In this document: positions 1 to 64,000 of the stretch, piece by piece | Layout: each line of letters opens with the position of its first letter | Position numbering within the stretch: the stretch's first letter is position 1 | Source: a virus | Taxonomy: Duplodnaviria; Caudoviricetes | Length of the DNA stretch: 64,000 nucleotides | Direction: 5' to 3' (one strand) | IMG/VR virus record: IMGVR_UViG_3300034053_000021 | Span: 203-64,202 of that record | Program-made: the position numbers and the translations under genes | The notes under the pieces: generated by a model | Seen by the model: only the letters and a program-made list of their open reading frames with translations | Told to the model about the DNA's origin: nothing | Database searches by the model: none

Positions 1-1
1 G

Positions 2-454
2 GCCGCTTTGCCTGAGCGCTTCCAGGTTGTCGCGTCCGTAGGCCACCAAGGCAATGGGTGCGCCGCTATTGAAATCTGCCCGCCGTCCGTCCACGTAGTG
101 GAAGTGCGGGCGCCCTTTGAGGAACAGCACACCATCTGCCGAGCCCCAGATCGTTTCGTAAAACATCGCGGTTTCGGTCCGCGCCGGAATCAAGGCAATT
201 CCGTTGCCGTGGTCGCGCATACGCCGCAGCCACTTCACGGCCTCGCGTCCGAATGGCGGGTTGCACCACACACGGCCAAACCACGGCAGCGCCAGCCCGT
301 CGTCCTGCGCCGTGTAGTGCTGTGCCGCTGTTTCCCAAGGCCGCACCGCTGGCGCGCACGGGTCAAGATCGAAGGCACCGAGCGCCCGCAGGATCTCTGG
401 CGGCGTCAGCCATTCGTCGTGTCCGCCGTTCTTCTGGTGCGCACTCAAACCCAT
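2..454 (-). CDS. Phage DNA N6-adenine methyltransferase (Dam-like), 3' end runs off the window
   Basis: Hand translation from ATG 454 (absent from the ORF track): MGLSAHQKNGGHDEWLTPPEILRALGAFDLDPCA...VWCNPPF...IALIPARTET. The EWxTP, FDLDPCA and NPPF motifs are typical of this family. Confidence 0.9.
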   Translation of the reverse strand, partial: MGLSAHQKNGGHDEWLTPPEILRALGAFDLDPCAPAVRPWETAAQHYTAQDDGLALPWFGRVWCNPPFGREAVKWLRRMRDHGNGIALIPARTETAMFYETIWGSADGVLFLKGRPHFHYVDGRRADFNSGAPIALVAYGRDNLEALRQSG

Positions 455-455
455 C

Positions 456-782
456 TCACTTGTCCCCCGTGTGGCACAACCCGTCAGTCGAGCCGACCTC
501 GCGCGATAATGCCGCGCTCGTCGGCTCACTTTTTGCGTTAGAGGGCATGTCCGCCAGTAGCCCAGCCAGCCGTTGCGCGGTACTCCAAACCTTTTTCGGC
601 GGGTTCGGCGTACCGGATCGAATCGCGTCCGGTGTCACCAGCACTGCACGCTGCGGTAGCGTCATCAACTCGCGCAGGAACGGAAGCAATTGGTGTTCTG
701 GCATCGTTCCGGTTTCAATGTGCGGCCCGTGGAACTTGCCACCCTTGCTGCGCCACAGGGCGCGAAGATCGTCGTCTGTCAT
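456..782 (-). CDS. Hypothetical cassette protein; C-terminus read through attC1
   Basis: 108-aa ORF; GAGGA SD just after the attC2 core. Confidence 0.75.
   Translation of the reverse strand: MTDDDLRALWRSKGGKFHGPHIETGTMPEHQLLPFLRELMTLPQRAVLVTPDAIRSGTPNPPKKVWSTAQRLAGLLADMPSNAKSEPTSAALSREVGSTDGLCHTGDK
474..543 (+). mobile_element. Integron attC site 1
   Basis: GCACAAC-5nt-AGT(C)GAGC CGAC...GTCG GCTCACT-6nt-GTTAGAG: R''/L''/L'/R' boxes with an extrahelical C in L''. Confidence 0.9.
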
Positions 783-797
783 GCTGTCCTCTCTGCC

Positions 798-863
798 CTC
801 TAACCCGTCAGTCGAGCGGACTCCGCGCCTGCGGCGCTCCGCTCGCTCACTTTTGAGTTAGTA
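798..863 (+). mobile_element. Integron attC site 2
   Basis: CTCTAAC-CCGTC-AGT(C)GAGC...GCTCACT-TTTGA-GTTAGTA. Confidence 0.9.
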
Positions 864-866
864 GGC

Positions 867-1085
867 TCAGTATTCACAGCACACCTCGAATTCGTGGCCG
901 CATTCCGGGCACTCCACCTCAAGGCTGTTTGCCAGTTTTGTGCCGCTCTCTATGGGTTGCAGACGTTCGTGGTTGACCCAGAAATCGTCGGCCCGCAGTA
1001 GATCAACAAACTCTCCACACTTCGGGCAATCGCAGTTCAAGGAAATGTCCCATGTCGCGCTAACTTCTGCTTTCTTCACCTTCAT
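867..1085 (-). CDS. Small double zinc-ribbon cassette protein
   Basis: CPKC and CPEC motifs; AAGGAG SD. Confidence 0.8.
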   Translation of the reverse strand: MKVKKAEVSATWDISLNCDCPKCGEFVDLLRADDFWVNHERLQPIESGTKLANSLEVECPECGHEFEVCCEY

Positions 1086-1102
1086 CTCCTTTTCGTCCAG
1101 CC

Positions 1103-1189
1103 TTCTAACCCGTTGCTCGTGCGGACCGAATATCGGCGGCGCTCGTTTCTCAATCCGCCTCGCGCGGTCCGCACAGCGCTGCGTTGGGC
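1103..1189 (+). mobile_element. Integron attC site 3
   Basis: TTCTAAC-CCGTT-GCT(C)GTGC GGACCG...CGGTCC GCACAGC-GCTGC-GTTGGGC. Confidence 0.9.
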
Positions 1190-1365
1190 GCCTTCTTCAC
1201 GCCGTCAAATGGTGGAACTTTCAGCCAAATATCTGCGGCATCTTCTGCCGCCATCTGGCCGCTGAACTCCATGCGGAAGCCTCCGTTCGTTTTGATCGAC
1301 ACAACCACAAGCGCCGTTCCTTGCTCGGGGTTCTCTCTCGGCATCGTTGCTCGCCATTTCTTCAT
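1150..1365 (-). CDS. Hypothetical cassette protein; stop codon inside attC3
   Basis: 71-aa ORF ending APNAALCGPREAD. Confidence 0.65.
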   Translation of the reverse strand: MKKWRATMPRENPEQGTALVVVSIKTNGGFRMEFSGQMAAEDAADIWLKVPPFDGVKKAPNAALCGPREAD

Positions 1366-1414
1366 CGCAGTCCTCTCAAAGCGGCATTGCCGCGTAAATT
1401 TTGCAAGTTGCAGC

Positions 1415-1484
1415 GCCCAACTAGGCGTGCAAGCGGGGCGCTGCGCGATAGGGCCGCGCAGCGCCCCTTCACTCGGCGTTGGGG
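1415..1484 (+). mobile_element. Integron attC site 4
   Basis: GCCCAAC-TAGGC-GTG(C)AAG..GGGCGCTGCGCG/CGCGCAGCGCCC..CTTCAC-TCGGC-GTTGGGG. Confidence 0.88.
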
Positions 1485-1488
1485 GTCT

Positions 1489-1740
1489 TCATTGCCGGCA
1501 TCCGATCTGCTTGCCTGCGCTGTCAATTCGTGGCGTCAGCCCTCCGCTCACCGCTTCGAGGTACTGGCAGCCGGTGAGCGCGTCGGTTCGCACCGCTACG
1601 CCGCTTCGCTTCCCCCATTCTCCGGGGTCACTGTCGTCTCGGCTGATCGGCAGCTTTCCTATCAGCACGACCGAGAAATAGAGCACGACGGCCCACTTTG
1701 CCAGCCACTTGGTGTAGTTCTTCAGTTCCTCAGCAGCCAT
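1489..1740 (-). CDS. Membrane-anchored cassette protein (DUF6440-like)
   Basis: Start at MAAEELK; N-terminal TM segment, then TDALTGCQYL..SGGLTPRIDSAGK. Confidence 0.7.
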   Translation of the reverse strand: MAAEELKNYTKWLAKWAVVLYFSVVLIGKLPISRDDSDPGEWGKRSGVAVRTDALTGCQYLEAVSGGLTPRIDSAGKQIGCRQ

Positions 1741-2227
1741 CGCGTTTCCCTTCAAAAGTCGGTGCTGGCTGGACGGCGACCCCCAACCCGTCGTTGCAGG
1801 CGCGACCTCCTTCGGCGGCGGCCTGAACTCGGGCGTTGGGGGCCTTACGCAGCGCCAAGTCCAGCCGCGCCAGTGCATTCCATGCCGCATGTGCCGCGTG
1901 GTGCAGTCCGGTGTCCGGGTCGCATTCCTCGCCAGTCGCCTCTCGCATCAGGTGCCGCAGCATCGCGTCCGTGTAGCGGCGTTCTCCGTCCGGCACTTCC
2001 ATCCAGCCGTTGTCGGTGTACTTGTTTGCGCCGTAGGTGCCCACAGCGCCAACCTCTTGCAGCGCCCGTGCAAACCCACATAACACCAACCCGAGCCGGT
2101 TCTTTCCGGCATCCAGCTTTGCCCCGGCCTCGTTCGGCTTCTTGCCGTTCGGGTCGGCCTCCAGTACCCCGAATGTCTCGGCTCTGTGCTGGTCGTCGGC
2201 GGTCATATGCATTTGGTTCTCCATCAT
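1730..2227 (-). CDS. dATP/dGTP diphosphohydrolase-like protein (DUF5664)
   Basis: GAKLDAGKNR..L...ALQEVGAVGTYGANKY..NGW...YTDAMLRH...DPDTGLHHAAHAAWNAL; the tail reads through attC5. Confidence 0.88.
   Translation of the reverse strand: MMENQMHMTADDQHRAETFGVLEADPNGKKPNEAGAKLDAGKNRLGLVLCGFARALQEVGAVGTYGANKYTDNGWMEVPDGERRYTDAMLRHLMREATGEECDPDTGLHHAAHAAWNALARLDLALRKAPNARVQAAAEGGRACNDGLGVAVQPAPTFEGKRDGC
1781..1841 (+). mobile_element. Integron attC site 5 (last of the array)
   Basis: CCCCAAC-CCGTC-GTT(G)CAGGC...GCCTGAAC-TCGGGC-GTTGGGG. Confidence 0.88.
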
Positions 2228-2230
2228 TCA

Positions 2231-2683
2231 TCAGTCCTCAAAAGTCTGCGCTGGCGATACGGCGCCGACTTTTGCGAGAACATCTCGCGCAATCTGGTTG
2301 CCAATGCTGTTTCCGTAGTGCGGTTCATTGCCAAGCCTCGCCAGCTTTTCGAGTGCCGCAGCAAGTTCGTCGCGCTGCTGCTTCATAGCGAAAAGCTCTT
2401 CCTGAGTTTCTACCAGAGCTGCACCGTTGATGTCCGCCGTCTGCTCGGATGCGGCGAGTTTATATTCAGCATCGCTCAAATCTTTTACAACGGAATCACG
2501 CATCTCCTTTGTTGCTTCCAGTTCAGCGCGCATGTGAGTAACGGCAGCCTCTAGGTGGATGATGTACTCTTGCTTATTCTTAAGTTCAGCGCGTAGTGAT
2601 TCGATTTCATGATGCAAAGGCTTTGTTGCCTCGTCGATTTCTCGCTGCCGCATCTGCCTAGTCAGATCTTGTGTTTCAATCAT
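2231..2683 (-). CDS. Hypothetical coiled-coil protein
   Basis: 150-aa heptad-rich ORF with GGAG SD. Confidence 0.75.
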   Translation of the reverse strand: MIETQDLTRQMRQREIDEATKPLHHEIESLRAELKNKQEYIIHLEAAVTHMRAELEATKEMRDSVVKDLSDAEYKLAASEQTADINGAALVETQEELFAMKQQRDELAAALEKLARLGNEPHYGNSIGNQIARDVLAKVGAVSPAQTFED

Positions 2684-2881
2684 CTCACTCTCCTTGTATT
2701 AGGACCACCCGCATTGTTTCTCCTTCTTCATCCCCCTCTATTGAGATTAAAAGGTGCGGGTGGGTTGATAGGTGGGGTACTCGTGCCCGGGTGATGCCTT
2801 ATGCCGTTGGAGCACTCGACCGCGAATCCGCAATCCAGAAGTGTGGCACATAGGACTTACTCCACTTTCCCCCATTGATCG

Positions 2882-3088
2882 TTAAATCTTCTTGCTTCTC
2901 GTTGCAAATCCACTCGCTCTGGCATAGACGCAATACTCTCCGCCGCTATGCGAGTGGGTGCTGACTACCCTCTGTCCTTCTACGACTGGGCATGCCTTTG
3001 GCTCAGGAGTGTGCATTCCTACGTACATCCCGCCGAAGAAACATCCGACTCCGAACGTGATGACGAAGAGAAACTTCTCGGCGGTCAT
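2882..3088 (-). CDS. Small membrane protein
   Basis: Start reassigned to MTAEKFLFV (GGAG SD); N-terminal TM segment. Confidence 0.65.
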   Translation of the reverse strand: MTAEKFLFVITFGVGCFFGGMYVGMHTPEPKACPVVEGQRVVSTHSHSGGEYCVYARASGFATRSKKI

Positions 3089-5343: not shown

Positions 5344-6150
5344 TCACCCCACAAGAATAAGTTCGTTGGCCGAATAGTGATCGGCACACTTCAACTTAGC
5401 CTGGTCACGGTAATGCTCGCGCTCAAGATCGAAATCCACGATACACCGGCAGAGCTGCCACATGCGGGTAACTTCATCGATATCTTTGTTCATAAGTATG
5501 GCATCCTCCACCATTTTGACCTCATCGCGCAAGAACACATCCCACATTGCGGACATACTCGGGTACGCCCTCGACTCGACGACCATCACCGACAGCCGCA
5601 GCTTGGCCTCGGCCCACAGATTCTTCCACCGTGCCTCGAACGCCTTGAACCGCTTGGGGTTGTCGAAGCTGTACTTGATCTTGTGCGAGGTGTATCTACC
5701 CTCGGGCGCGTAATGGTACGGCTTACCCTCAGGCGAATCGTATCCGATGGACCCCGACTTGAGTACGACCTTGTGTTCAACGTCCACCCACAACACAGGA
5801 TTGTCCTCGATACGGCTGACAGGTATCTTACGCCCGGTATGTGGACACTGCAACTTACTTACCAAGTCCTTGGCCGGACGAATCAGTACCCCATACCGCT
5901 CCTCGTTACGCTCTCGCCACGCGGGGTCACGGTCGCCGACATTACACACTTGCAGCTTACCGTCAGCCGCTACGCACACCTGCCCCGCGTCATCGACGTG
6001 CATCTCGAACAGTACTACCGCGCTGTCGGCGGAACCACGCGCGTTGCCTGATATAACCTCAAGTTGTCTGGACACATCGTTTCCGTAGCTGTTCTTGTAC
6101 TGCTGCGTCCAGTACGCACTGGTCATGAACGCCGGGTCTTTGAGTTTCAT
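5344..6150 (-). CDS. Hypothetical protein
   Basis: Start MKLKDP, ATGA-coupled to the upstream gene. Confidence 0.75.
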   Translation of the reverse strand: MKLKDPAFMTSAYWTQQYKNSYGNDVSRQLEVISGNARGSADSAVVLFEMHVDDAGQVCVAADGKLQVCNVGDRDPAWRERNEERYGVLIRPAKDLVSKLQCPHTGRKIPVSRIEDNPVLWVDVEHKVVLKSGSIGYDSPEGKPYHYAPEGRYTSHKIKYSFDNPKRFKAFEARWKNLWAEAKLRLSVMVVESRAYPSMSAMWDVFLRDEVKMVEDAILMNKDIDEVTRMWQLCRCIVDFDLEREHYRDQAKLKCADHYSANELILVG

Positions 6151-24968: not shown

Positions 24969-26678
24969 ATGCCTAGAGTTTTCGTTTTGTCGCAGTTGCT
25001 TGGGGAGCTTCCTGCAGCGCGGGTTGCAGAGTTGGAATGGCCGGCGGCTGTTTTGGTTGATGGGAAATTGAGGGTCAAGTGCCGCGAGCATGGAGCCGAG
25101 TACATGATCGCACCGGGGAACCTGCGTAGAGGGCAGAAAGGGTGTCCTGTATGCGCAGCAGCTGGGCGGGCGGAGGGGATAGTTGTAAAGAAGGCGCAAG
25201 CTATGGCTGCGGCGTTGGCGGAGGCAGCTAAAGTTCACAATGGGAAGTACGACTACTCGGATTTGCAGACGGACTCTGTAACCCAACTTGCGACGATACG
25301 GTGTCCGGTACATGGAGTATTTCATCAAACCATGGTGAGCCACTCCCGGGGGCACGGATGTGATGCTTGCGCGCAGTTGGTAAGGACAGCAAAGCAGACC
25401 GGCAAAGGGTGGGAGAAAAGGCTGGCGATCATCCGGAAATTCTGTTCCGAGCGCGGGTATACCGTAGCTGAGGATTTGTCGATTCCGCGAGCGTGGCGTT
25501 CAGCTGTGTCGGTGATGTGCAAGCATCATGGGGCGTTCCAGAGCACGGTAGGCTCGCTGGTGCATGGTAAGGGCTGTTGGAAGTGTTTCACCGAATTCCG
25601 TGCCGGGAAGCAAGCGAATGCGGATGGGGCGGCAACTTTTGTAGCGAAAGCCCGTAAAGTGCATGGCGATGCTTACGACTACTCGAAGTTCGTCTACGTC
25701 GATTCGTATGTGAAGGGCGAGGTGTTCTGCAAGAAGCACAACAAAACGTTCCTTGTTGCGCCGGGGAATCACGTTCAGGGCAAAGGCTGCCCTTCGTGTG
25801 GGGTACAGGTTTCGCATAACGAGGACGAGATTGCAGCGTTCCTGAAACAATTCGCAGTGGTGCGGCAGCGCGTGAGGGATGTGATCGCTCCGAGGGAGCT
25901 GGATATATACCTGCCCGAGCATGGACTGGCGATCGAGTACCACGGACTTTATTGGCACACCGAGGATCGTGTCGGAAATATGCACTTCGAAAAGTGGAAT
26001 GCCTGCGCGGATGCTGGTGTTGAGTTGTGGCAGATTTTCGAAGATGAGTGGAACACCAAGCGCGACGTGATTCAGCAGCGACTGGTGGCGAGGCTGGGGC
26101 GCGGGGCTAAGGTGGGGGCAAGGGCCTGCACTGTGGTGGACGTCTGTGCTGACGACGCCAAGGTGTTTTTCGACCGTACCCACTCGCAGGGCGGGCTAGG
26201 GTATTCCCCTGTCAGTTTGGGGCTTGAGCACGACGGCCAGCTAGTTGCTGTGGCGACATTTGGTCGGCAGCGGAATGGTGCGATGACGGTGGCTCAAGGG
26301 TGGGAGGTTTTGCGATATGCCAGCGTTGGGACAGTGTCTGGGGGGTTTGGGAGGCTGTTTGCGGAGTTCCTGCGCCGACACGACCCAGAAGAGGTCGTGT
26401 CGTTCTGCGATCTGCGGTGGGGGAATGGTCGGATGTATCAAGCCGTGGGGTTTGTGCTGGATCGGATCACCCCGGCGGATTATTGGTGGCTCGCGTACCG
26501 GTCGGGGAAGCACCGAATTCCTCGGTATCAGACCCAAAAACACAAGCTGAAAGGGCATGCGGTATTGGGGGCGTTCTACAAGGAAGAGCTGACGGAACGG
26601 CAAATCTGCGAGGCTGCCGGTTGGCAGCGGATTTTGGGCGTAGGGCATCAGCGGTGGGTTTGGACCCGCAAACCTTGA
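24969..26678 (+). CDS. Hef-like/DUF723 homing endonuclease (Zn-ribbon repeats + PD-(D/E)XK + C-terminal domain)
   Basis: Four C..HG.F.....H..G.GC..C repeats; ELDIYLPE..LAIEYHG.YWH; WQIFEDEW. Confidence 0.8.
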   Translation: MPRVFVLSQLLGELPAARVAELEWPAAVLVDGKLRVKCREHGAEYMIAPGNLRRGQKGCPVCAAAGRAEGIVVKKAQAMAAALAEAAKVHNGKYDYSDLQTDSVTQLATIRCPVHGVFHQTMVSHSRGHGCDACAQLVRTAKQTGKGWEKRLAIIRKFCSERGYTVAEDLSIPRAWRSAVSVMCKHHGAFQSTVGSLVHGKGCWKCFTEFRAGKQANADGAATFVAKARKVHGDAYDYSKFVYVDSYVKGEVFCKKHNKTFLVAPGNHVQGKGCPSCGVQVSHNEDEIAAFLKQFAVVRQRVRDVIAPRELDIYLPEHGLAIEYHGLYWHTEDRVGNMHFEKWNACADAGVELWQIFEDEWNTKRDVIQQRLVARLGRGAKVGARACTVVDVCADDAKVFFDRTHSQGGLGYSPVSLGLEHDGQLVAVATFGRQRNGAMTVAQGWEVLRYASVGTVSGGFGRLFAEFLRRHDPEEVVSFCDLRWGNGRMYQAVGFVLDRITPADYWWLAYRSGKHRIPRYQTQKHKLKGHAVLGAFYKEELTERQICEAAGWQRILGVGHQRWVWTRKP

Positions 26679-53585: not shown

Positions 53586-55139
53586 TTATACGGGGTTGTC
53601 AAGGGTCTTGCGATAAAGGCTCAAAACTTTTTCTTGCCGGCCAGCTTTTGCATCGGCTACCCCATATGCCTCCCATTCTAACGCCGTAGACCCTATATGT
53701 ATGATTGTCATGTGGTGCTTCTGTCCGGGGCGGATCACACGGGCGTCGGCTTGCTGTTTATGCTCCGCAGAAAACGTCGGGCCGTACCAGATACACACGT
53801 TGGCCGTCACCAGTGTCAGACCATGCGCCGCCGTCGCGGGGTGGGCGATGAGCACCTTCAGCTCGCTGCTCTCATCTTGGAACTCGGTGATGATCTCGGA
53901 ACGCTCTCGCGCCCCCACGTCGCCGTTGATGATCGCGCACTTCCACTCCTTGGACAGCTCGGTCTTGAGGTACTCCATGGCCTTCTTGAACGGGCACCAG
54001 ACGATGACCTTGCGCTCGGACTCCTCGACAATCTCCCGCACCGCCGCCACCCTGTCGGGCGCACCGATGAGCTGGGCGTTGCCCTCGTCGTCCATGACCG
54101 TCCCACCGCACACCTGCAGCATCTTGACCAGCTTGACAGCGGCATTGGCCGCTGTGATCGTCGCGCCGTCGTTGTCCGCCACCAGATGCTTGCGCAGGTC
54201 TTCCAGCATCTTGCGCTGTGTTGCCGACAGCTCGCAATCCCGGCGCTGATAGGTCACCGGCGGGAGGTCGTGGCAGTCCGATGTCTTGAATCGGATCGCC
54301 GGCTGCAGGGCCTCGTAGGCCATCTGCGCTGCCTCTGGTTTGGGTATCCATTTGAAGTTGGTCACCTGAATCATGGTCTGACGCTTGAACGCGAGGAAGT
54401 ACGGAGGTACTATGTCGGGACGGACGAGGCGGGCCAGCGCCCATGCATCGGTCGGCGCGTTGGGGCAGGGGCTGCCAGTGAGTAACCACAACCGCATGGT
54501 CGGCTTGGCCACCGCCTTCAGCGTCTTGTACCGGTTGGTGCCAGCATTGCGGATCGCGCTTGCTTCATCATAAATAATTAGGTTGATGCGGTTATCTTTA
54601 CTTATGACGTCAGCGATCGTTGCCAGCCCGTCGTGATTCACGAGGATGTAGTCAGAGTCGCTTGCCGCCAACTCGCGCTTGCGCTCCCGCCCGCCCTCGA
54701 TCACCACGGCTGACCGGTGCATGACTGTCTGGAAAATCTCATCCTCCCATACCTTGTGGGTACAGGACTTCGGGCAGACGATCACCGCACGGTCGACCAA
54801 CCCCTGCTGCATCAGATACTCTGCCGCCCACAGTGCACTCTTGGACTTTCCAACCCCCATTTCTGAAAGGTCGAACCCTCGTCTTGTCGTGGTCCAGAAC
54901 TCCACGGCAGCCTTCTGGTGATCCCAAGGCTGATAGCGCCCGGGGTACTCCCACCCATGGTTGACCGGACTCGGCGCGGCAATGCCGAGATTGCGCAAGA
55001 TCGTCACTGCATCCAACTCATGCTTCACGGCGATATGTGGCTTGCCGCGGTACTCGATCGTGCGCGAGTGAGGCAGCACCGCCCGAACCGCGATGGGGTC
55101 GGGGGCCTCGAAGACGAGATAACCTTTACCTGCGAACAT
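53586..55139 (-). CDS. SNF2-family helicase
   Basis: EMGVGKS; IYDEAS; LTGSP; SF2 C-terminal motifs. Confidence 0.92.
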   Translation of the reverse strand: MFAGKGYLVFEAPDPIAVRAVLPHSRTIEYRGKPHIAVKHELDAVTILRNLGIAAPSPVNHGWEYPGRYQPWDHQKAAVEFWTTTRRGFDLSEMGVGKSKSALWAAEYLMQQGLVDRAVIVCPKSCTHKVWEDEIFQTVMHRSAVVIEGGRERKRELAASDSDYILVNHDGLATIADVISKDNRINLIIYDEASAIRNAGTNRYKTLKAVAKPTMRLWLLTGSPCPNAPTDAWALARLVRPDIVPPYFLAFKRQTMIQVTNFKWIPKPEAAQMAYEALQPAIRFKTSDCHDLPPVTYQRRDCELSATQRKMLEDLRKHLVADNDGATITAANAAVKLVKMLQVCGGTVMDDEGNAQLIGAPDRVAAVREIVEESERKVIVWCPFKKAMEYLKTELSKEWKCAIINGDVGARERSEIITEFQDESSELKVLIAHPATAAHGLTLVTANVCIWYGPTFSAEHKQQADARVIRPGQKHHMTIIHIGSTALEWEAYGVADAKAGRQEKVLSLYRKTLDNPV

Positions 55140-55432
55140 CACGCCCTCACTTCCAGCCACTCGCGCAGTTCCCGCAAGTCCACGTAGTCGCTGCCGTCGA
55201 TAACGAACGCTGGCCCCTTTGCGCGCCGGATCTCGGCGATCGTCAGCTCCTGCCGAGGGGTAGGCTTCTTGCCAGGTGCCTTGGTTTCGACGGCGAAGAA
55301 CCGCCCCTCGTGGCAGCCGATGAAGTCCAGCGAGGGCTTACCCATTCCGTTGGTTACCGGCATGTGGTAGTACGCCTTGTGAGCGTCGAGGAGCTTCTTC
55401 ACAGCGGCTTTGACAAACCCTTCCGGCGTCAT
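55139..55432 (-). CDS. VRR-NUC nuclease
   Basis: MTPEG.VK; G.PSLDFI.C..GRF.AVETKAPGKKPT.RQ. Confidence 0.9.
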   Translation of the reverse strand: MTPEGFVKAAVKKLLDAHKAYYHMPVTNGMGKPSLDFIGCHEGRFFAVETKAPGKKPTPRQELTIAEIRRAKGPAFVIDGSDYVDLRELREWLEVRA

Positions 55433-55608
55433 ACCGGCACCCCAGTCATGTCGGTCTTATACTTCACGGTTTTGCCGCCCGTTACTGGGGCCTCAGCGAT
55501 CTTGGCCTCCAGTCGATCGAACAGCTCCTCGACCAGTGATTTGTCCGCAGGGTTGTAGCGCAACCGCAGCAGCTCGGTGTCCGACAGGTGGCTATACTTG
55601 GTCAGCAT
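55429..55608 (-). CDS. Small hypothetical protein (59 aa)
   Basis: MLTKYSHLSD.ELL; ATGA-coupled. Confidence 0.6.
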   Translation of the reverse strand: MLTKYSHLSDTELLRLRYNPADKSLVEELFDRLEAKIAEAPVTGGKTVKYKTDMTGVPV

Positions 55609-55783
55609 TTTCTTCCTCCTTGACGATCTTGTACTTGTACTTTTCCATGGTGTCCTTGTTGACCACCTCTTCGAACTCCGAAGTCATCCCTTGCATCTTG
55701 GTCATCCCGGTTGCCGGGTCACGTGAGATGATGCGAAATCGCACCTTCGGGTTGGTCAGACTTTGTAGGTAGTACGCCATCAA
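55592..55783 (-). CDS. Small hypothetical protein
   Basis: 63-aa ORF in the operon. Confidence 0.65.
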   Translation of the reverse strand: MMAYYLQSLTNPKVRFRIISRDPATGMTKMQGMTSEFEEVVNKDTMEKYKYKIVKEEENADQV

Positions 55784-56460
55784 TATCTCCTCGATCCCTT
55801 ACCATAAAACTCGCAGGTTGTTACCGGGCAACCCGCATACCCTTTACCATTCGGACGGCACAGCCCCGAGGGCTTGGGAGGATAGATCCCTAGTGCGTCC
55901 GCTTCTTCCATCTGTGCTGCATCGTCGATAAACTCCTGCCACAACTTCTTCTCGTCTGCCCGGTTATACACCGCACTAGTCTTCTCCCTGAACTGAATCC
56001 ACAAGAACCGGGATTTGACCGTCTGCACTTCCAGGTACGCCGCAAACACCAGCAATGCCATCAACTTGAGTTGCGAGCTGGGTTTCACCTTACCGAACTT
56101 GTAATCAATAGCGATAGCATTTTCCCCATCGATACTGAGTACGTCGATTATACCCCGTACCCATCGCAAGGGTGAGTCAAATGCACACGGATTTAGTTCT
56201 TTATCTACAGCAAGCTCGTGCTCACACAGCAGCGTCCCCGGTAGCGACTCGATCCCCACCGCCAACGACTCAAGGTAGGCGAACTCGGACGGTAGCGGCG
56301 TCTTGTCCCGGACGCGATGTTCGAGGGCGAGGTGGCCCCGAGTACCCCACACCGTTGTCGGGTGCTCGGTTTGCTGAAAGTTGCGCGCCACCTGTAGCTC
56401 GTAATACTGCGTGGGGCATGTCAGGTAGGACTTGAGTCGGCTGAACGACCAGTTAAACAT
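55780..56460 (-). CDS. PD-(D/E)XK (Cas4/RecB-like) exonuclease
   Basis: WSFSRLK.Y..CP; GT.GH..LE; RGIID; IDYK.GK; C.GCP. Confidence 0.9.
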   Translation of the reverse strand: MFNWSFSRLKSYLTCPTQYYELQVARNFQQTEHPTTVWGTRGHLALEHRVRDKTPLPSEFAYLESLAVGIESLPGTLLCEHELAVDKELNPCAFDSPLRWVRGIIDVLSIDGENAIAIDYKFGKVKPSSQLKLMALLVFAAYLEVQTVKSRFLWIQFREKTSAVYNRADEKKLWQEFIDDAAQMEEADALGIYPPKPSGLCRPNGKGYAGCPVTTCEFYGKGSRRY

Positions 56461-56710
56461 TTCCATGTCCGAAGATCCCCCTGAAGCCCGCAGTTCCGAA
56501 AGCCATTGACTGCGGGGAAACCCGTATCCGCTCGAACGGGTCTGGTCTTGTCTTATCTGACATCTCCCACGCCAGCCTAGCCGCCTCGGCGGTCTCAAAC
56601 TTATCGGCAGCATTGGCGTCGGAAAACGTCCAGCCACAGATAAACCCATCGGCAAACGCAAACATCCTCGCGCCGTCAGGGAGTGGAATGCCTAGTTTTC
56701 CATCGCTCAT
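56453..56710 (-). CDS. Paralog 3 of a tandem triplet
   Basis: FETAEAARLAWEM. Confidence 0.75.
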   Translation of the reverse strand: MSDGKLGIPLPDGARMFAFADGFICGWTFSDANAADKFETAEAARLAWEMSDKTRPDPFERIRVSPQSMAFGTAGFRGIFGHGNV

Positions 56711-56985
56711 TGGTAAATCCCTCCGAACATCCCCGCCATCCCCCTCGGGGACTTGAGGGCCCTGAGCACAGCCTCGCCGGTGATCTTCACAGGGTCACGG
56801 GGCAACATCTCCCAAGCCATGCGCGCAGCTTCGATCGTGTCAAAGCCGTCGATGTCGTCCGTCCACAGATCACCTTCCCACGCCGCCCAATACTTTCCGT
56901 TGGGTAACTGCCAGATGCCTACATTGGACGGCTCGATTCGGGCAACAGGTTTGGCGCTTATCGGTCCGGGCTTGACTTCAGTCAT
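56707..56985 (-). CDS. Paralog 2 of a tandem triplet
   Basis: FDTIEAARMAWEM. Confidence 0.75.
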   Translation of the reverse strand: MTEVKPGPISAKPVARIEPSNVGIWQLPNGKYWAAWEGDLWTDDIDGFDTIEAARMAWEMLPRDPVKITGEAVLRALKSPRGMAGMFGGIYQ

Positions 56986-57275
56986 GGCATGGCATCCTCA
57001 TAAACCTCTTCAGTGATAATTAGGTTCTGACTCAACGATGTGCGGGTCTGGGTCTCGTGGTTCTTGATCCAGTCTGTGGCAACCCGGATACGGGAAAACA
57101 AGTCCTTCTCCGGCAGGTCCGACATTTCCCACGCCATCCGGGCGGCTTCGGGAGTTTCGAACCGCAGCGAATTTGCTCGGGCTGCGTGGAAATTATGGCC
57201 GCAGACGTACCCGTCGATGAACGTGAACAGCCTCGCGCCGCTGGGAAGTAACTCGCCCGGAGGAACGTCAATCAC
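56982..57275 (-). CDS. Paralog 1 of a tandem triplet
   Basis: FETPEAARMAWEM. Confidence 0.75.
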   Translation of the reverse strand: MIDVPPGELLPSGARLFTFIDGYVCGHNFHAARANSLRFETPEAARMAWEMSDLPEKDLFSRIRVATDWIKNHETQTRTSLSQNLIITEEVYEDAMP

Positions 57276-57529
57276 TTCATGCTCCCGTCTTTGTTCCGCT
57301 TGAAGCCGCGGTTCTTGGACGGCGTCGTGACCCGTATATTGCCGAGGGTGTTCGCACCGCCTTTGCTGATGGGGCGCTTGTGGTCCAGATCGGTCCCGTC
57401 GCCACGCTTCACCATCCCGGCCTTGATCGCCGCCCGGCGGATCTTGGTGCGCTCGGCGTTGCCCTTGGCCTCACCTCGCTTGAGCTGCAGCTCCCGCTCT
57501 CGTTTGTAGTCGCGCTTAATCATAGGCAT
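57272..57529 (-). CDS. Small HNH endonuclease-like protein
   Basis: DLDHKRPISKGG.N..GNIRV.....NR. Confidence 0.8.
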   Translation of the reverse strand: MPMIKRDYKRERELQLKRGEAKGNAERTKIRRAAIKAGMVKRGDGTDLDHKRPISKGGANTLGNIRVTTPSKNRGFKRNKDGSMK

Positions 57530-57540
57530 TTTCTATCTCC

Positions 57541-59409
57541 TCATTTAGCTTCTGAATACCGGAACCCGGTGTGGGCTTCGGCGGACAACGGTACATCTGG
57601 CCACCACGTAGGCGAAAGGCAGAACACCTCGTAGGCGGTCTTGGCTACAACTTCGGCATCCGCCTCGGGCACGACATAAACCGCTTCGTCGTGCACCGAC
57701 AACACCAGCCTCACGTTCGGGTGACGCCTGCACACCTCCAAAGACTGCTCCATGACGATCGCCCGCGCGATGGACTGCACCACGTTCTCCACCACTTTCC
57801 CCCCATATATGCGGGTTCCAGTGAATTTGCCTGCGTCGTACACCCACTCGTCGCCTTGCTGCCGCAGGTTCGGATACTTTATCACCAACCCATGCGGCAG
57901 CACAAGCCCGGAGTTACAACTTACTACCAACCCTGCGGGGTCGAGGGGCTTGTCGTTCCCCTTGCGGATGGCCGGCAACAGATCCTGCGCGGCTTTCCAC
58001 AACTTCACCACCTGCTTGTGCGCGCTGCGGTAGTCGACAACAGCAGACTGCGCCTCATCTTCAGTCATAGGGGGCAGCCCCCACTGGCGCGCGGTTTCTT
58101 TGAACTTTGCCCCACCCATGCCGAATCCGCAGGCCAACTTCAACACTTTTCCAAACTGGCGCTCCTGCACATCCGCCTTGGTAATCGGGCGCCCATATCG
58201 TTTGCTGGCCATGTAGCAGTAGATGTCCGGACCTTCCTTGCGGTCAGCCTTGCGATACACCTCAACCGCCTCGGTCTCGCCGGCCAAGCAGTCTACCACC
58301 CGCGCTTCGATGTTGGCCGAGTCGACGACCACGAACATGTGCCCCGGCGGCGCGCACAGCGAGCTGCGTATCGCACCTTTCTTTGGCATGTTCTGGAGGT
58401 TGAGCTTATCCCCGCCACTGAACCGATGCGACTGGTCAGCTCCGCAGTAATTGAGATACACCGGCAGCGGCCCTCGGCTAGCGATGCCGATCAGCCGCTC
58501 GACACGGGTCTCTGCGATGGTGCTCTTGTTCCCCAGACGCGCGGCCACCAGGGTTTGCACATCCTCATCCTCGTGCTCCAGCAGCTCGGTCATGCCCTTA
58601 TCCGTCTTGGCGAACGCCCACGTCACTTTGCCTGTAGTGGGGCTGATCTTCGTCGGCGGGGATACCCCCAGCGACTGCAGTGCCTCGGCGAATTTGGGAT
58701 TGCTCATCAGCACGTCACGGTCGACACCCCCGGCAGCCAGCAGCTTCTCTCGCTTGGTGCGCAGCTCCGCCAGCTCACTACGCAGTAAGATCGGGTCAAG
58801 CAGGATCTCCGGCTCGGTGAACATACGAATCGTGCGATCTATGAGCTTCAACTCGAAATTGGGGAACGTCGTGATCTGCCGCTCAAGCGGGGCGTAGAAC
58901 CCCTGCGACAACAGCCGGAAGATGCCAAGGGTCAGCTCACAGTCGTTCAGGCAGTACTCCCCATACCGATACCATTCCTCGGGGGTGAAGTCCTTGCGGC
59001 GCTTGCCTAGCGCATTGAGCACCTCGGTGCCCTTCTCCCCGATGTCGAACAACTTTGCCAACTTGGCCAGCGACCCGCCCGCAGAAAACCCGCCCACCAC
59101 CGCCCGGGACATGGACAGCGTGTCCAGCCACAGCGCCGGGTTGATGTTGAAGCGCCACGCCAGTATGGCGCCATCGAAGTGCGTGTGGTGACAGAGGATG
59201 GCGACCTTGTGCCAGTCTTGCTGGGCTGCCCACTCACGGAAATCATCCGCCTCCATCCACGACTGCCGCGCCCGGCCGGCGACTTCTTCGTACACCCCCA
59301 CACCGATAACCTCGAACCGAGGGTCACGGATGTATGCCTCAGTGGTCATCTTGGACAAGGAATACTCCTTGTCGTAATACGTTTCCAGATCGACAACGAC
59401 TATTCGCAT
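57541..59409 (-). CDS. polA: Family A DNA polymerase with 3'-5' exonuclease
   Basis: VDLET exonuclease; DSANIEAR (motif A); RQFGKVLKLACGFG (B); VHDE (C). Confidence 0.95.
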   Translation of the reverse strand: MRIVVVDLETYYDKEYSLSKMTTEAYIRDPRFEVIGVGVYEEVAGRARQSWMEADDFREWAAQQDWHKVAILCHHTHFDGAILAWRFNINPALWLDTLSMSRAVVGGFSAGGSLAKLAKLFDIGEKGTEVLNALGKRRKDFTPEEWYRYGEYCLNDCELTLGIFRLLSQGFYAPLERQITTFPNFELKLIDRTIRMFTEPEILLDPILLRSELAELRTKREKLLAAGGVDRDVLMSNPKFAEALQSLGVSPPTKISPTTGKVTWAFAKTDKGMTELLEHEDEDVQTLVAARLGNKSTIAETRVERLIGIASRGPLPVYLNYCGADQSHRFSGGDKLNLQNMPKKGAIRSSLCAPPGHMFVVVDSANIEARVVDCLAGETEAVEVYRKADRKEGPDIYCYMASKRYGRPITKADVQERQFGKVLKLACGFGMGGAKFKETARQWGLPPMTEDEAQSAVVDYRSAHKQVVKLWKAAQDLLPAIRKGNDKPLDPAGLVVSCNSGLVLPHGLVIKYPNLRQQGDEWVYDAGKFTGTRIYGGKVVENVVQSIARAIVMEQSLEVCRRHPNVRLVLSVHDEAVYVVPEADAEVVAKTAYEVFCLSPTWWPDVPLSAEAHTGFRYSEAK

Positions 59410-59570
59410 CTCGCTCTCCAATAGTTATGATCGGCGGGTTTGGTACATCGCTGCCCGCCGGCAGCGTTATGGAGTAGGGAGGTGCCCACTACTCACCCCT
59501 GACAAACACCTCCCTGCAACGCTCGTGCCCATGTACCCTGCGGCCGTTGGACGTTGGCAATGGAATGCCG

Positions 59571-59837
59571 TCAGGGGGTTTTCTTGGTTCGCTTATTAGT
59601 CTTGGGTACTGGGGTGAACCCGACGTAAAGTCCAGCTGGCTGGTCGCCTGAGAACACCGTAGGTTTTTCGGGTGCGTCGAACTGCGGCCCGGAGCTGTGA
59701 GCATCGCCGTCGTGCCTGTCCTGGGCTAGTATCCACCCAGTAGCGGTGGAGATGATATCGTCTTGGCTACTTCCCACCTGCTGCCCGACGGATTCCAGCG
59801 CCAGCTTGAGCTTCACCATCTGTGGATTGAGCGCCAT
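59571..59837 (-). CDS. Hypothetical protein
   Basis: Start MALNPQ. Confidence 0.6.
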   Translation of the reverse strand: MALNPQMVKLKLALESVGQQVGSSQDDIISTATGWILAQDRHDGDAHSSGPQFDAPEKPTVFSGDQPAGLYVGFTPVPKTNKRTKKTP

Positions 59838-59838
59838 A

Positions 59839-60060
59839 TCAGGCCACCCGCCAGATGCGCGAGCCTTCACCTTCGCTACGCACGGCAAACTTGACAGTGC
59901 CACCCTCACGCTTGGCGTACGCCGTCGCTGCGCTACGCAGGGATGCCGGCTTGGTATCGGCCTTGAAGCTCTCGCCGACGTTCATGACGGCGAACGGGTA
60001 CTTGCTGCGGCAGACGCGAGTGGAAGACATCGGGATACCGGCTTCGATCTTGTAGGTCAT
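59839..60060 (-). CDS. Small putative DNA-binding protein
   Basis: KIE.GIP....KYPF..M.VGESF; F..R.......RIWRV. Confidence 0.75.
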   Translation of the reverse strand: MTYKIEAGIPMSSTRVCRSKYPFAVMNVGESFKADTKPASLRSAATAYAKREGGTVKFAVRSEGEGSRIWRVA

Positions 60061-60257
60061 TTGGTTCTTTCCTTTCGTTTGGTGTAGTCATCGGAACAGT
60101 CTTTGTCGCAAAACCTGCGACCTTTGGGCACACGCGCCAAGCAGTTGTGGCACTTGCCGTTCGGCTCCACGTCGTACTTGACTTGTGATGCGTGCAGTAT
60201 AGCACGCTTCAGCAGTTCTTCCGCCTGATCGTTTGCTCTGTCGATTTCGTCAGCCAC
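60057..60257 (-). CDS. TraR/DksA-like C4 zinc-finger protein
   Basis: MADEIDRAND; CHNC....RFCD.DC. Confidence 0.7.
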   Translation of the reverse strand: MADEIDRANDQAEELLKRAILHASQVKYDVEPNGKCHNCLARVPKGRRFCDKDCSDDYTKRKERTK

Positions 60258-60798
60258 CTTTAGCCCCCTCCACAGATTGTGACTTGTTGTAATTCCCGAT
60301 AGTCGCGTAGCTGCGATGCTTAGGAACCTCTGTGACACGGTAGAACAACGCCTGCCCTGCTCTCATACCGGGACGGATACGAAGCGTGTGGAACCTGTTG
60401 AGATTGACGAACTCCAGAGTCAGCGATGACCCATGCCATCCCGGATCTGCGTGTCCGGCATGTAGGTGTTCCAAGTGATTACGTGCTAAGGAACTGTTAA
60501 GGTAATACTCACCGACGATGTTGTTCGGAAGGTTGAATATCTCTACTGTATGCGCGAGGATTCCTTCTCCTGGAGCGAGATCGTAGTATGAGCCAGTAAT
60601 GTCAATACTTGTGCGAGCTACAGACTGTCGAGGTTTTACCGATAGGTCGATAGTTTCAGTGTAAGCACTGTTTTCGGCAAGTATCTCATTACCTAGATGA
60701 AGATCAATCGACGCAGCATTGATAGCCTCCGGTTTGACGTTGGTAATTACACCCTGTTCAGCCAATTCGCACAACTCTGTGTAGCTTAGTAAGCTCAT
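60250..60798 (-). CDS. dcd: dCTP deaminase
   Basis: INAASIDLHLG; SSLAR; DPGW.G..LTLE..N; G.R.GQ. Confidence 0.9.
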   Translation of the reverse strand: MSLLSYTELCELAEQGVITNVKPEAINAASIDLHLGNEILAENSAYTETIDLSVKPRQSVARTSIDITGSYYDLAPGEGILAHTVEIFNLPNNIVGEYYLNSSLARNHLEHLHAGHADPGWHGSSLTLEFVNLNRFHTLRIRPGMRAGQALFYRVTEVPKHRSYATIGNYNKSQSVEGAKGG

Positions 60799-60937
60799 TT
60801 CAATACCTCTTTAGTTAGAACGTCAATACTTTCTTGTATATTATCGTGAAGCCAATCCGGTATTGGTAGTTTCAAAGAAAACCCCCACGACTCTAAAGCG
60901 GATAACAACTTTATGATGTCAAGCATTTGTTCTTTTG

Positions 60938-61336
60938 TCATTTCTTGTACTCCGGTGCGGCGGCGAGCATGGCTTTGTATTGCATCATTATGTACTGGTC
61001 AGCCGTACATTTCGGCACGCCTACTGAGTAGCTAGCTCGCAGCATCTCTCTTGTCGGCTCGATCGGAACCAACTTCCAGCCTTCAGGTACCGTGGATGCA
61101 GGATGGGCATAGAGCGGGATATCATCTGGCAATCTTTGGTCGCAGTCACACAGTGCTAATTCGCTGTCCATCCACGCTACCGGCTCTGCCTTCTCCATCT
61201 GCTCGATTGCAATCGCCAGCGCGTCCATCGCGGTATCAATCTCTGCTGGCAGCGGAATTCCTATTGGCGGCTTGCTTTGTTCATTTAAGTCCTTCAAAGA
61301 CTCCAGCGCCTGCTTCATTACGTCAATCACATTCAC
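60938..61336 (-). CDS. Mosaic phage accessory protein
   Basis: EPVAW..PLYAHP..VPEGWKLVP.EPT.EML..AMLAAAP. Confidence 0.8.
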   Translation of the reverse strand: MNVIDVMKQALESLKDLNEQSKPPIGIPLPAEIDTAMDALAIAIEQMEKAEPVAWMDSELALCDCDQRLPDDIPLYAHPASTVPEGWKLVPIEPTREMLRASYSVGVPKCTADQYIMMQYKAMLAAAPEYKK

Positions 61337-61518
61337 GATTTCACCTCTCCAGAATTCCTCTGCATCCAGAAGATTTTGTTAGCCAGCAGATGCCCGCCTT
61401 CCTTGATTTCCTTGGCATGGAAGTGGGCCTTGTCGATTTCACCGACATCAAGCAGCCGTTGGACCTCATTGATGTGGTGGATGATCGGTGACAGATAGGA
61501 TTTTAGTTCGTTTGTCAT
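61333..61518 (-). CDS. Small hypothetical protein
   Basis: Coupled ORF. Confidence 0.65.
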   Translation of the reverse strand: MTNELKSYLSPIIHHINEVQRLLDVGEIDKAHFHAKEIKEGGHLLANKIFWMQRNSGEVKS

Positions 61519-61712
61519 TTCATCTCCATCGCTCGGATTCCTGTTTCAATCGGACCATCCTCTTCTGGTTCATGATTCCATGCCACCCTCGCGGCATCAC
61601 AAATCGCCTTGTTGTACATAGCCTTACCAAAATCAAGTAGTGCGGCAGGATCATCGTCTAGGATGAATCCTGTTTCCCCAGTGTATATCCTTCGGATGTC
61701 GTCGTTGGTCAT
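61515..61712 (-). CDS. Small hypothetical protein
   Basis: Coupled ORF. Confidence 0.65.
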   Translation of the reverse strand: MTNDDIRRIYTGETGFILDDDPAALLDFGKAMYNKAICDAARVAWNHEPEEDGPIETGIRAMEMK

Positions 61713-62056
61713 AGTCCAAACACTCCTAAAGTAACAACCTTTTTCCTCGCCTTGTAAGCCCGGATTCGTTCAGCCGGAGTCAGCTTATCTCTTGGCCTGA
61801 CATTTCTCCGCTCACCTAGCGCCCAGATCTTCGTAACACCTCCTTGTCCTTCTGGATACACGTACTCGCAGATGTAAATAACGCCCAACTTCCTGAGTAC
61901 CTTTATCCACCGCCTAGATGTCTCAGCTGTTACGCCTACACCTTCGGCAAGCTGCTCTGCTGAAGATGGGGAGTGGTCAAGGTACTGAATGGCTTGCTTC
62001 AAGTGTGCCGGCAGGTAGGCCAGTGCTGCCTTTGCGATGGCTTCTTGCGATGTCAT
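61709..62056 (-). CDS. Winged-HTH DNA-binding protein
   Basis: SAEQLAE.VGVT.ETSRRWIK.L; IYI. Confidence 0.7.
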   Translation of the reverse strand: MTSQEAIAKAALAYLPAHLKQAIQYLDHSPSSAEQLAEGVGVTAETSRRWIKVLRKLGVIYICEYVYPEGQGGVTKIWALGERRNVRPRDKLTPAERIRAYKARKKVVTLGVFGL

Positions 62057-62190
62057 AGGGTACTACCCACAATGCTTTTAATCGAGGCCAGAATGGCGCA
62101 TATTGATCCAAATAGTATGCGAAAGTTTTTGCTCCATTCATGGCTTAAAGCTATTACCCCACATAGAAGAAGAAGTTGTTGGTCTGTCAT
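62053..62190 (-). CDS. Small membrane peptide (45 aa)
   Basis: MTDQQLLLLCGVIAL...; ATGA-coupled. Confidence 0.5.
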   Translation of the reverse strand: MTDQQLLLLCGVIALSHEWSKNFRILFGSICAILASIKSIVGSTL

Positions 62191-62208
62191 GTCGTGTTTC
62201 TCGGTGTA

Positions 62209-62216
62209 GTTATGCG
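62209..62216 (+). mobile_element. Inferred primary insertion point (G|TTATGCG) of the first cassette
   Basis: Complementary to the attC6 R'' (CGCATAAC) over 8 bp; no attC hairpin on its left. Confidence 0.55.
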
Positions 62217-62569
62217 ACAGTGGGTGTCGGATAATTTAAGTTATGCATCGTCATCAGTGTGCGCAGATCGCAGAGCGCATCAAAACACTGCTCCCTGTCG
62301 TAGCCGTACTTGTGAAACTGCTCCAGCGTATCAATCGCCAGATTCACCGCGCGTTCGCAAAAAGTCGGCGCTGGCGAGACGGCGGGTTCTTCGTCGTAAA
62401 TCGGTTTCCCGCAGCTATCGCACTGGTTCCAGTCCGTTTCCTCAATTCCGTGGCCGGTGCTGCAAGTGCAAAACGGCTCGTCGCCCTCTTCGTCTTCCTG
62501 CATCATCAGCCACTCTTCGTCATAGTCTTCCGGTGGCGGCTGCGCCCCTATCGCGCTTGGCCCCATCAT
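62210..62569 (-). CDS. Cassette gene with zinc finger
   Basis: CTC, CDSCGKPI; TAA stop lies inside the core site. Confidence 0.7.
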   Translation of the reverse strand: MMGPSAIGAQPPPEDYDEEWLMMQEDEEGDEPFCTCSTGHGIEETDWNQCDSCGKPIYDEEPAVSPAPTFCERAVNLAIDTLEQFHKYGYDREQCFDALCDLRTLMTMHNLNYPTPTVA

Positions 62570-62862
62570 TTCAGCCCCGCCTCTGCTCTGAGTTGCCGCA
62601 CTGCCTCATTGTGTGCGTCTGCGATGTATTCAGCGTTCGGCATTCGCATAATCTCAGTCAGGTCTTTCGCGTACTTGCGGATAAAGTTGCGCAAGTCAAT
62701 TACATCTTCGGCGCAGCAATCGTGTTCCTCTGTCTTTATCTTCAGTGCCGTCTCAAGCCGGTGAATCTCTGCCGCACACTCTCCGTGCGGATCGCCATCT
62801 GGCTGTTCATCAAACATTGCCTTCTCCTCTCGCGCCTCGCGCATTGCCTGTCCGAAATTCAT
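62566..62862 (-). CDS. Cassette gene, coiled coil
   Basis: GDPHGECAAEI.RL; GGAGG SD just after the attC6 core. Confidence 0.75.
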   Translation of the reverse strand: MNFGQAMREAREEKAMFDEQPDGDPHGECAAEIHRLETALKIKTEEHDCCAEDVIDLRNFIRKYAKDLTEIMRMPNAEYIADAHNEAVRQLRAEAGLK

Positions 62863-62878
62863 CTCTTCCTCCAAATCC

Positions 62879-62946
62879 GCATAACACGTCGCTCAACACG
62901 GACGCAGGCAATAAAGCCGCCTGCGCCGGTTAGCTAGGCGTTATGC
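62879..62946 (+). mobile_element. Integron attC site 6
   Basis: GCATAAC-ACGTC-GCT(C)AAC(A)CGG(A)CGCAGGC...GCCTGCG CCG GTTAGC-TAGGC-GTTATGC; three extrahelical bases. Confidence 0.92.
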
Positions 62947-63251
62947 CTCGCGTACAGTGGAGTCCATGCCCCGCTGTTTTTTCGCACATACTCGATCTGT
63001 TCATCCATGATCGGGCCTTCGTAGCATCCGTCGCTGCAAAAACGAATCCATGCAACAGGCTTTGCCGTCTCGTCAGCGCCGACTTTTCTGCACTTGTCGC
63101 GCATCAGTTCAATCATCCGCTCGCGCTCCTGCGCTCTATCACTGTGGTGCTCAGCCGTTGCCCAGCAATCACGAAGATCCCTCAGCGCTACCGTGTCGTC
63201 AGTCGGGCAGTACTTCGGGTTTCGTGCCCTCATCCAGTTGTCGAAGGTCAT
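62934..63251 (-). CDS. Cassette gene (KPVAW...WTPLY module); stop codon inside attC6
   Basis: Start MTFDNW; ATGA-coupled. Confidence 0.75.
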   Translation of the reverse strand: MTFDNWMRARNPKYCPTDDTVALRDLRDCWATAEHHSDRAQERERMIELMRDKCRKVGADETAKPVAWIRFCSDGCYEGPIMDEQIEYVRKNSGAWTPLYARHNA

Positions 63252-63973: not shown

Positions 63974-63995
63974 TCCTCGTCCTTTCATCGTTAAG

Positions 63996-64000
63996 GCATA
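63996..64000 (+). mobile_element. Probable start of attC site 7, truncated by the window edge
   Basis: AAGGCATA at the edge is complementary to GTTATGCCT at 62940 if the next two bases are AC. Confidence 0.55.

Follow-up and report, generated by a model that had tools for sequence, protein, structure and literature searches.

The 64,000-nt stretch of DNA analyzed here (the window) comprises bases 203–64202 of a 64,202-bp record in the IMG/VR virus collection (IMGVR_UViG_3300034053_000021). Its first lines carry short open reading frames (ORFs) on the − strand, separated by imperfect hairpins with the anatomy of attC, the recombination site of integron gene cassettes. Together with further sites at the other end of the window, this stretch is very probably part of a seven-site, integrase-less cassette array (a cluster of attC sites lacking integron integrases; CALIN) that lies among genes transcribed leftward in the complete 64-kb genome of a tailed phage. 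The two ends of each of seven units in this array pair with one another, and it is this pairing, together with its conservation in other viral contigs and the kinship of the sites with those of bacterial integrons, that carries the interpretation developed below.

Integron integrases cut the folded bottom strand of attC within its AAC triplet, which corresponds to a crossover at G/TT on the top strand (the slash marking the cut). According to work by Hall, Stokes and co-workers in the 1990s, the first bases of a cassette are reportedly complementary to the cassette's own inverse core, and the attC of a linear array is said to be a hybrid of two cassettes. In this scheme a cassette would begin at the TT of one core, include its gene and close with the G of the next attC; once excised as a circle, its first bases (TT and 5–8 more) would rejoin its own attC, pair with its own left box and complete the R box. 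The ends of a unit would thus be complementary over 8–11 nt because the circle restores its own R box, and the ends of a linear attC would be mostly non-complementary because they come from two different cassettes.

Results

Seven attC Sites on a Circular Map

The two ends of the virus record share a 125-bp repeat, and the map is therefore a 64,077-bp circle. Because this terminal repeat (window 63876–64000 and contig 1–125) comprises part of a cassette gene and the beginning of an attC, the start of the contig is arbitrary and the array is continuous across it. The sites were located with a hairpin scorer, which takes the arm that follows each AAC and aligns it with the reverse-complemented arm preceding a GTT. 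Run over the 64-kb circle, it placed all seven attC (Table 1) among its top nine matches, the other two lying near 45754 and 49532, and no further convincing attC was found by it anywhere else in the 64 kb. With seven clustered sites and none convincing elsewhere, the array is a small one of about 3.7 kb and not a property of the whole window. Other ways of finding the sites were rejected: scanning by free energy for AAC...GTT hairpins returned 157 candidates, which in DNA this rich in GC were mostly noise; a rigid-geometry scan recovered three and a strict local-alignment scan five, and both were replaced by the softer arm-alignment scorer. Because MAFFT aligned the seven sites without regard to structure, the alignment was not turned into a covariance model.

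Each attC is an imperfect hairpin between ...AAC and GTT..., with outer boxes (R'' on the left, R' on the right) that carry both triplets in 7/7 sites, 53–79 nt from AAC to GTT, spacers of 5/6 nt and loops of 3–14 nt. On the + strand the left arm has 2–4 extra bases and the right arm 0–1 in six of the seven sites, attC2 having one on each arm; when the − strand is folded, the bulges lie on the 3′ arm in all seven. Neither the integron-integrase model TIGR02249 nor the tyrosine-recombinase model PF00589 had a match in the whole 64-kb genome. The array thus has seven attC, where a CALIN has at least two, in a genome lacking an integron integrase. It is not a complete integron, since an integrase is absent, the first element of the array is a bare GTT core, and 1–3000 yielded no promoter-like site.

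The Two Ends of Each Cassette Pair with One Another

A first-pass annotation, made from the sequence of the window alone, had compared the core at the left of four units (starting at 538, 858, 1184, and 1479, in each case the T that follows the G of GTT) with the reverse-complemented left box of the attC at their right, and had claimed that each unit's ends match better than do the ends of a linear attC. The four matches that it quoted are exact, both as read directly and as recomputed, and the rule extends to three more units, 7/7 in total (Table 1). The comparison with the linear sites also holds: the summed contiguous match is 35 for the ends of linear attC versus 60 for own-unit pairs. When boxes were assigned at random, a total of 60 was reached in 4 of 200,000 trials, with an identical count for the match-of-11 measure, and own-end pairing is confirmed as real and not a product of chance. 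Two linear attC pair nearly as well as own-unit pairs (attC5 over 8 contiguous nt and the attC at 62878–62946 over 7), because their adjacent cassettes have almost identical boxes.

The check proposed with that claim was carried out by building the circular cassettes in silico and folding the bottom strand: the energy fell by 2–10 kcal/mol in 7/7 attC, and the circularized sites completed 8–11 of 11 R-box pairs, versus 0–9 in the linear sites. The annotation had further predicted sequence lying outside the window. The core of the methyltransferase cassette, expected beyond the left edge, is present as GTTGTGCC at contig 177–184, and the dinucleotide AC expected after base 64000 is borne out by the terminal repeat, in which the window ends with GGCATA and the other copy continues with AC. 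Own-end pairing strongly indicates that the hairpins mark true cassette borders, to the base.

Table 1. Units of the cassette array, in order along the circular map (all ORFs on the − strand; own-end pairing compares the core at the left of a unit with the reverse-complemented left box of its attC).
Unit	Position	ORFs	attC	Own-end pairing
Bare core, G/TTATGCG (+ strand); array start, no hairpin to its left	62209–62216			with left box CGCATAAC of attC 62878–62946: 8 contiguous
First cassette	62210–62940	62210–62569 (119 aa), 62566–62874 (102 aa)	62878–62946	from bare core, as above
Second cassette, cut at window edge	62941–64000	62934–63350 (138 aa), 63248–63988 (246 aa)	across contig junction, 63993 to 19 nt before window start (left box from 63993, remainder in the 202 nt of contig preceding the window)	core at 62940: 9 nt
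Methyltransferase cassette	1–537 (core GTTGTGCC 19–26 nt left of window)	start codon at 454	attC1, 474–543	core left of window vs. 473–480: 8 contiguous, 10/11
108-aa ORF cassette	538–857	456–782, runs through attC1	attC2, 798–863	GTTAGAGGGCA at 537–547 vs. 796–806: 11/11
Zinc-ribbon-like 72-aa cassette	858–1183	867–1085 (phrog_4173, E = 8e-10)	attC3, 1103–1189	GTTAGTAGGCT at 857–867 vs. 1099–1109: 10/11
71-aa ORF cassette	1184–1478	1150–1365, ends inside attC3	attC4, 1415–1484	GTTGGGCGC at 1183–1191 vs. 1413–1421: 9/9
DUF6440-like 83-aa cassette	1479–1835	1489–1740 (phrog_14094, E = 1e-12)	attC5, 1781–1841	GTTGGGGGTC at 1478–1487 vs. 1778–1787: 10/10
Truncated cassette, core TTGGGGGCC; abuts next phage gene	1836–2264	1845–2231 (128 aa)	none; no right-hand box

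Homologous Cassettes in Other Viral Contigs

The methyltransferase gene occurs in 80 viral loci, and about 12 other viral contigs have attC arrays around it (loci are numbered L and sequencing runs X where they must be told apart). In the clade to which the window belongs, the gene has complementary boxes on both sides and a box-encoded tail: the cassette methyltransferases (L002–L015; contig 135–190) end in ...VVG-x-N plus a tail encoded by the box and the adjacent attC, and homologues outside cassettes end differently, directly past GFVV. The variable bases of the box differ among loci, being GTGCC in the window and L002, CGACC in L005, GGAA in L004, ATGCC in L007 and L010, and AGATC in L009. 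Each variant is matched across the gene, so that complementarity is kept with at least five box sequences; pairs drawn from mismatched loci reach 7 nt in 0.5% of trials. These differences are compensatory covariation for a pairing confined to the circular form. The label "boxed" needs at least six changes on the methyltransferase tree; a repeated origin of the boxed state is not claimed, because the 70-nt search window missed two-gene cassettes such as that of L009.

Homology to single units runs from box to box. L002, an otherwise unrelated phage, is 91% identical from 22 nt left of the methyltransferase core to 5 nt past the AAC at 480; L091 is 86% identical over 1478–1792, with a different attC interior. 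The 128-aa unit recurs in two unrelated wastewater/sludge runs (X3 and X5) over 1832–2256 or 1832–2264, with an attC after it and a different interior before it, and in L102 and L103 it has attC sites on both sides. A freshwater run (X1) contains only 1833–2214 of the unit; stretches without read cover in such runs are uninformative. Three units therefore recur with different neighbors: the methyltransferase (L002, L005, L010, and others), the 83-aa (L091) and the 128-aa unit (X3, X5, L102, and L103). Across 10 arrays, an exact 8-mer own-end pair was present in 18 of 39 neighboring attC pairs and within a single site in 0 of 49. A comparison with empty sites gave nothing, as the left-flank protein had no relative in the viral collection and the right-flank 128-aa protein had two, both cassettes. 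The AT-rich distant loci L050–L076, which have complementary boxes and no convincing attC hairpin, were left out of the argument.

The Same attC Family Adjoins intI in Bacterial Genome Bins

A 22-mer of attC1 was found in three genome bins, assigned to Azonexus, to Rhodocyclaceae and, in one case, labelled Opitutaceae; all three have a TIGR02249 match above the curated cut-off, and in all three the attC sites adjoin intI with the expected polarity. The interior of attC1 (window 478–541) is identical at 64/64 positions, from AAC to GTTA, to the first attC after intI/attI in the Azonexus bin (L096 2849–2912), both flanking boxes of which differ from those of attC1. This identity points to a host in the Rhodocyclaceae and to recent exchange, and the integrase would be supplied in trans by that host, likely a member of the Rhodocyclaceae such as Azonexus. 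The first cassette at attI in the Azonexus integron is itself antisense, with an 89-aa zinc-ribbon ORF running toward intI (L096 2569–2838) and own-end pairing of 9/10 with the attI core; the second cassette is in sense orientation. In the integron of the Opitutaceae-labelled bin (L093), a PHROG search of the ORFs gave no matches, and strand was judged there from codon-position GC alone.

Directly after a degenerate attC in the Azonexus integron, at L096 3354–3393, begins an ORF starting MKVVRIGLDIAKT, a putative IS110-family transposase start. It is reminiscent of insertion sequences that target attC sites.

The first-pass annotation had held that these units are integron-type cassettes inserted individually by site-specific recombination and not mere attC-like repeats. 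Their nature as cassettes is supported by the folds, the box-to-box homologues, the covariation and the link to intI; their individual insertion into the phage is not, as nothing separates entry one by one from entry in blocks.

Register of the Crossover and Orientation of the Genes

Since the complementary boxes flank each gene symmetrically, pairing fits both possible registers and cannot place the crossover. The register of the first-pass annotation, G/TT on the + strand, agrees with the polarity of the bulges and with the array's left end, where a GTT core stands bare. For calibration, polarity was read from a known site of plasmid R100, the aadA1 attC, which comes after aadA1 on the sense strand of that gene and has a divergent intI1 farther upstream. 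The extra bases of this site lie in the left arm of the top strand and its bulges on the 3′ arm of the folded bottom strand, and all seven attC of the window show this polarity with the + strand as top strand. Extrahelical bases sit on the arm opposite the AAC triplet of the bottom strand (Nivina et al., 2016; PMC5027507). The same call points away from intI, correctly, in the arrays of the three genome bins. The ends of the array concur: the right end lacks a partner box, and the left end is a GTT core standing bare, as it would at a junction with attI or a secondary site. Bulge polarity and array ends together make G/TT on the + strand the best supported register, in which the + strand is the top strand and the − strand the recombinogenic bottom strand. 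When shared gene segments were paired with the attC on their left or right, the pairs were too few for a choice of register.

All ORFs with family support (the methyltransferase, DUF6440-like, zinc-ribbon, and Ead/Ea22-like genes) lie on the − strand, and codon-position GC agrees. Every cassette ORF (2–2231 and 62210–63988) is thus on the bottom strand of attC, co-directed with the neighboring phage genes, and with the + strand as attC top strand the cassettes are antisense to the classical layout, in which the ORF lies on the top strand with attC downstream. The same antisense polarity is seen in other viral contigs, in the arrays surrounding their methyltransferase and 128-aa genes. No σ70-like promoter was found in 1–3000; because the genes are co-directed with their phage neighbors, they are probably expressed by read-through from phage promoters. 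An automatic sense/antisense ORF caller proved unreliable (it miscalled L095, where a helix-turn-helix gene with PHROG support is on the + strand), and its counts were not used.

Cassette Contents, Array Ends and the Phage Genome

The methyltransferase is of the Dam-like N6-adenine type (PF05869, E = 2.5e-9; phrog_111, E = 2e-41). The 246-aa ORF of the second cassette has weak Ead/Ea22-like and PHROG matches, and no family matches were found for the two ORFs of the first cassette. At the left end of the array, GTTATGCG at 62209 is the sole occurrence in the searched stretch 55000–62877 (about 8 kb left of the array), and this bare core overlaps the stop codon of ORF 62210–62569. At the right end, no partner box was found beyond attC5, and the start of the 128-aa cassette gene overlaps the stop of the next phage gene; as the 128-aa unit lacks both a right box and an attC, the array finishes there in a truncated cassette rather than at a clean border of insertion. 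Two cassette genes have a conserved leader, CAAAAGTC...GCTGG (+ strand), in the interval from right box to start codon (1752–1795 and 2237–2262), and the version at 1752–1795 precedes different genes in four other metagenome runs.

PHROG matches to the large terminase, portal, virion and tail-fiber proteins lie on the + strand and matches to DNA polymerase, primase/helicase and helicase on the − strand, which identifies the genome as that of a tailed phage; the record is a complete genome of 64 kb. The phage is probably lytic. Among its structural genes is a homing-endonuclease-like HNH ORF of 569 aa (24969–26678; phrog_559, E = 2.6e-89). No public sequencing run holding this phage was found (best share 0.09).

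Discussion

The reading of the array as a CALIN whose cassettes were shaped by recombination at G/TT of the + strand has to be weighed against several observations. Recombination itself was not observed, there being no sequencing run holding the phage in which to look for junctions, and the attC were called with our own hairpin scorer, not with a standard covariance model. Three ORFs draw their last codons and stop codon from the adjacent attC. In two of the three shared units (L002 and L091) the gene is conserved but the attC interior on its own side is not, and the interior of attC1 recurs between other left and right boxes, at 97–100% identity, in the Azonexus bin and four unrelated runs. 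Lastly, the methyltransferase units of L004 (about 5980–6000) and L007 (5977–5984) have upstream of them a bare ...AAC box with no attC. All of these weigh against the reading, to which we nevertheless adhere.

Some of them would be accommodated by the opposite register, in which the − strand would be the functional top strand, each gene would own the attC downstream of it, and the crossover would fall at the AAC of the + strand. Own-end pairing, being mirror-symmetric, fits this arrangement equally well; the genes would stand in the classical sense orientation, ORFs ending in a downstream attC would end within their own cassette, the methyltransferase in L004 and L007 does have an attC downstream and a bare GTT core upstream, and the homology with L002 does end 5 nt past the AAC at 480. 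We nonetheless regard it as quite improbable. The bulge polarity, calibrated on the aadA1 attC and on intI-adjacent attC, is opposite to it in 7/7 sites, and under it the array would begin with an attC whose left box has no partner and finish in a box without attC. In L005, moreover, it is on the side expected for G/TT on the + strand, and not on the other, that the loop and left arm of the attC are shared along with the methyltransferase, and in the Azonexus integron an antisense cassette lies directly at attI with normal attC polarity.

Readings that dispense with phage-borne cassettes altogether are extremely improbable. The hairpins might be intergenic RNA or DNA elements of the phage, such as terminators or processing sites, with a complementarity that serves some other purpose; this would suit a phage without integrase whose cargo genes are of phage type, and the hairpins would indeed be transcribed, lying between co-oriented genes in a region (1–3000) with no σ70-like promoter. 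Against it, the same family of sites, including the identical 64-nt interior, adjoins intI in bacterial bins, the AAC/GTT triplets, spacers and one-sided bulges resemble those of the aadA1 attC in 7/7 sites, and all seven are in the scorer's top nine for the 64-kb circle. The array could also be a bacterial one mis-joined to a phage contig, for the sequence comes from a metagenome assembly, assemblers can be misled by attC repeats, and no run holding the phage was available for read support. We give such a chimera just as little credence: it needs two precise mis-joins within one circularly closed contig, the last cassette gene and the stop of the adjoining phage gene overlap, the cargo has matches in phage protein families, and about 12 other viral contigs have such arrays around the same methyltransferase.

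Even with the + strand register preferred, exchange at G/TT alone does not account for all of the comparisons. What is conserved across contexts is a gene with its two boxes. The attC interior on the gene's own side is weakly conserved with the methyltransferase (partial similarity in L005, a shared loop motif in L002) and is unrelated in L010 and, for the 83-aa unit, in L091. Because interiors and boxes re-assort, with homology breakpoints on both the AAC and the GTT side, exchange at G/TT alone is insufficient. The bare box of L004 and L007 mirrors the core at 62209 and hints at junctions formed at the AAC side. Possible causes of such two-sided breakpoints are occasional recombination of the top strand, conversion among family-conserved interiors, and ordinary phage mosaicism; recombination of the top strand cuts in the left box (Nivina et al., 2016; PMC5027507). 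A bolder proposal, tentative and in our view rather unlikely, is that this phage group would keep a pool of backwards cassettes of its own (attC upstream of the gene), traded with host integrons, in which gene plus boxes and attC interior would be exchanged as separate modules by crossovers at AAC and GTT.

Own-end pairing as such is the textbook signature of integrons, and the phage setting has been published: CALINs have been described in phages, including virulent ones, with DNA methyltransferases among their cargo, and the integrase IntI1 recombined 5/6 of the phage attC sites tested (Qi et al., 2023; PMC9892861). The array described here is like those in having attC sites without intI and a methyltransferase as cargo, and differs in belonging to an uncultured phage with a 64-kb genome from a metagenome, in its seven sites, and in its direct sequence link to an integron of the Rhodocyclaceae. 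The orientation of genes relative to attC polarity is not discussed in that study (Qi et al., 2023; PMC9892861), and another remarks that insertion of a cassette facing the promoter had not been seen (Nivina et al., 2016; PMC5027507). The sites share their anatomy and bulge polarity with the aadA1 attC (the 59-base element, In2 of R100). Compared with classical cassettes, this array has no intI, attI or cassette promoter (Pc), its genes are on the bottom strand, and its complementarity extends over 8–11 nt rather than 7. In the sedentary chromosomal integrons of Vibrio, toxin–antitoxin cassettes have the gene antisense to attC within a normally oriented array; these reversed cassettes are a minority and have their own promoters, whereas here all cassettes are reversed and no promoter-like site was found in 1–3000. 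The chromosomal integron of Azonexus (L096) and related Rhodocyclaceae bins have attC of the same family and, in L096, an antisense first cassette, but the Azonexus array has an intI, an attI-type junction, and a second cassette in sense orientation.

In practice, own-end pairing fixes the borders of cassettes to the base, and here it predicted correctly sequence lying outside the window. The standard model of cassette exchange leaves unexplained the reversed orientation of the genes and the independence of boxes and attC interiors. Modular exchange, if true, needs either an integrase that uses both strands or a process that re-fits an attC interior between pairs of boxes, and would bear on how cassettes are born. 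As it stands, an integrase-less, probably lytic phage carries a methyltransferase and small phage genes as cassettes, with the interior of one site identical to that in its likely host; traffic of genes between phage and host integrons through the host enzyme would fit, and may offer phages a route for swapping counter-defense genes.

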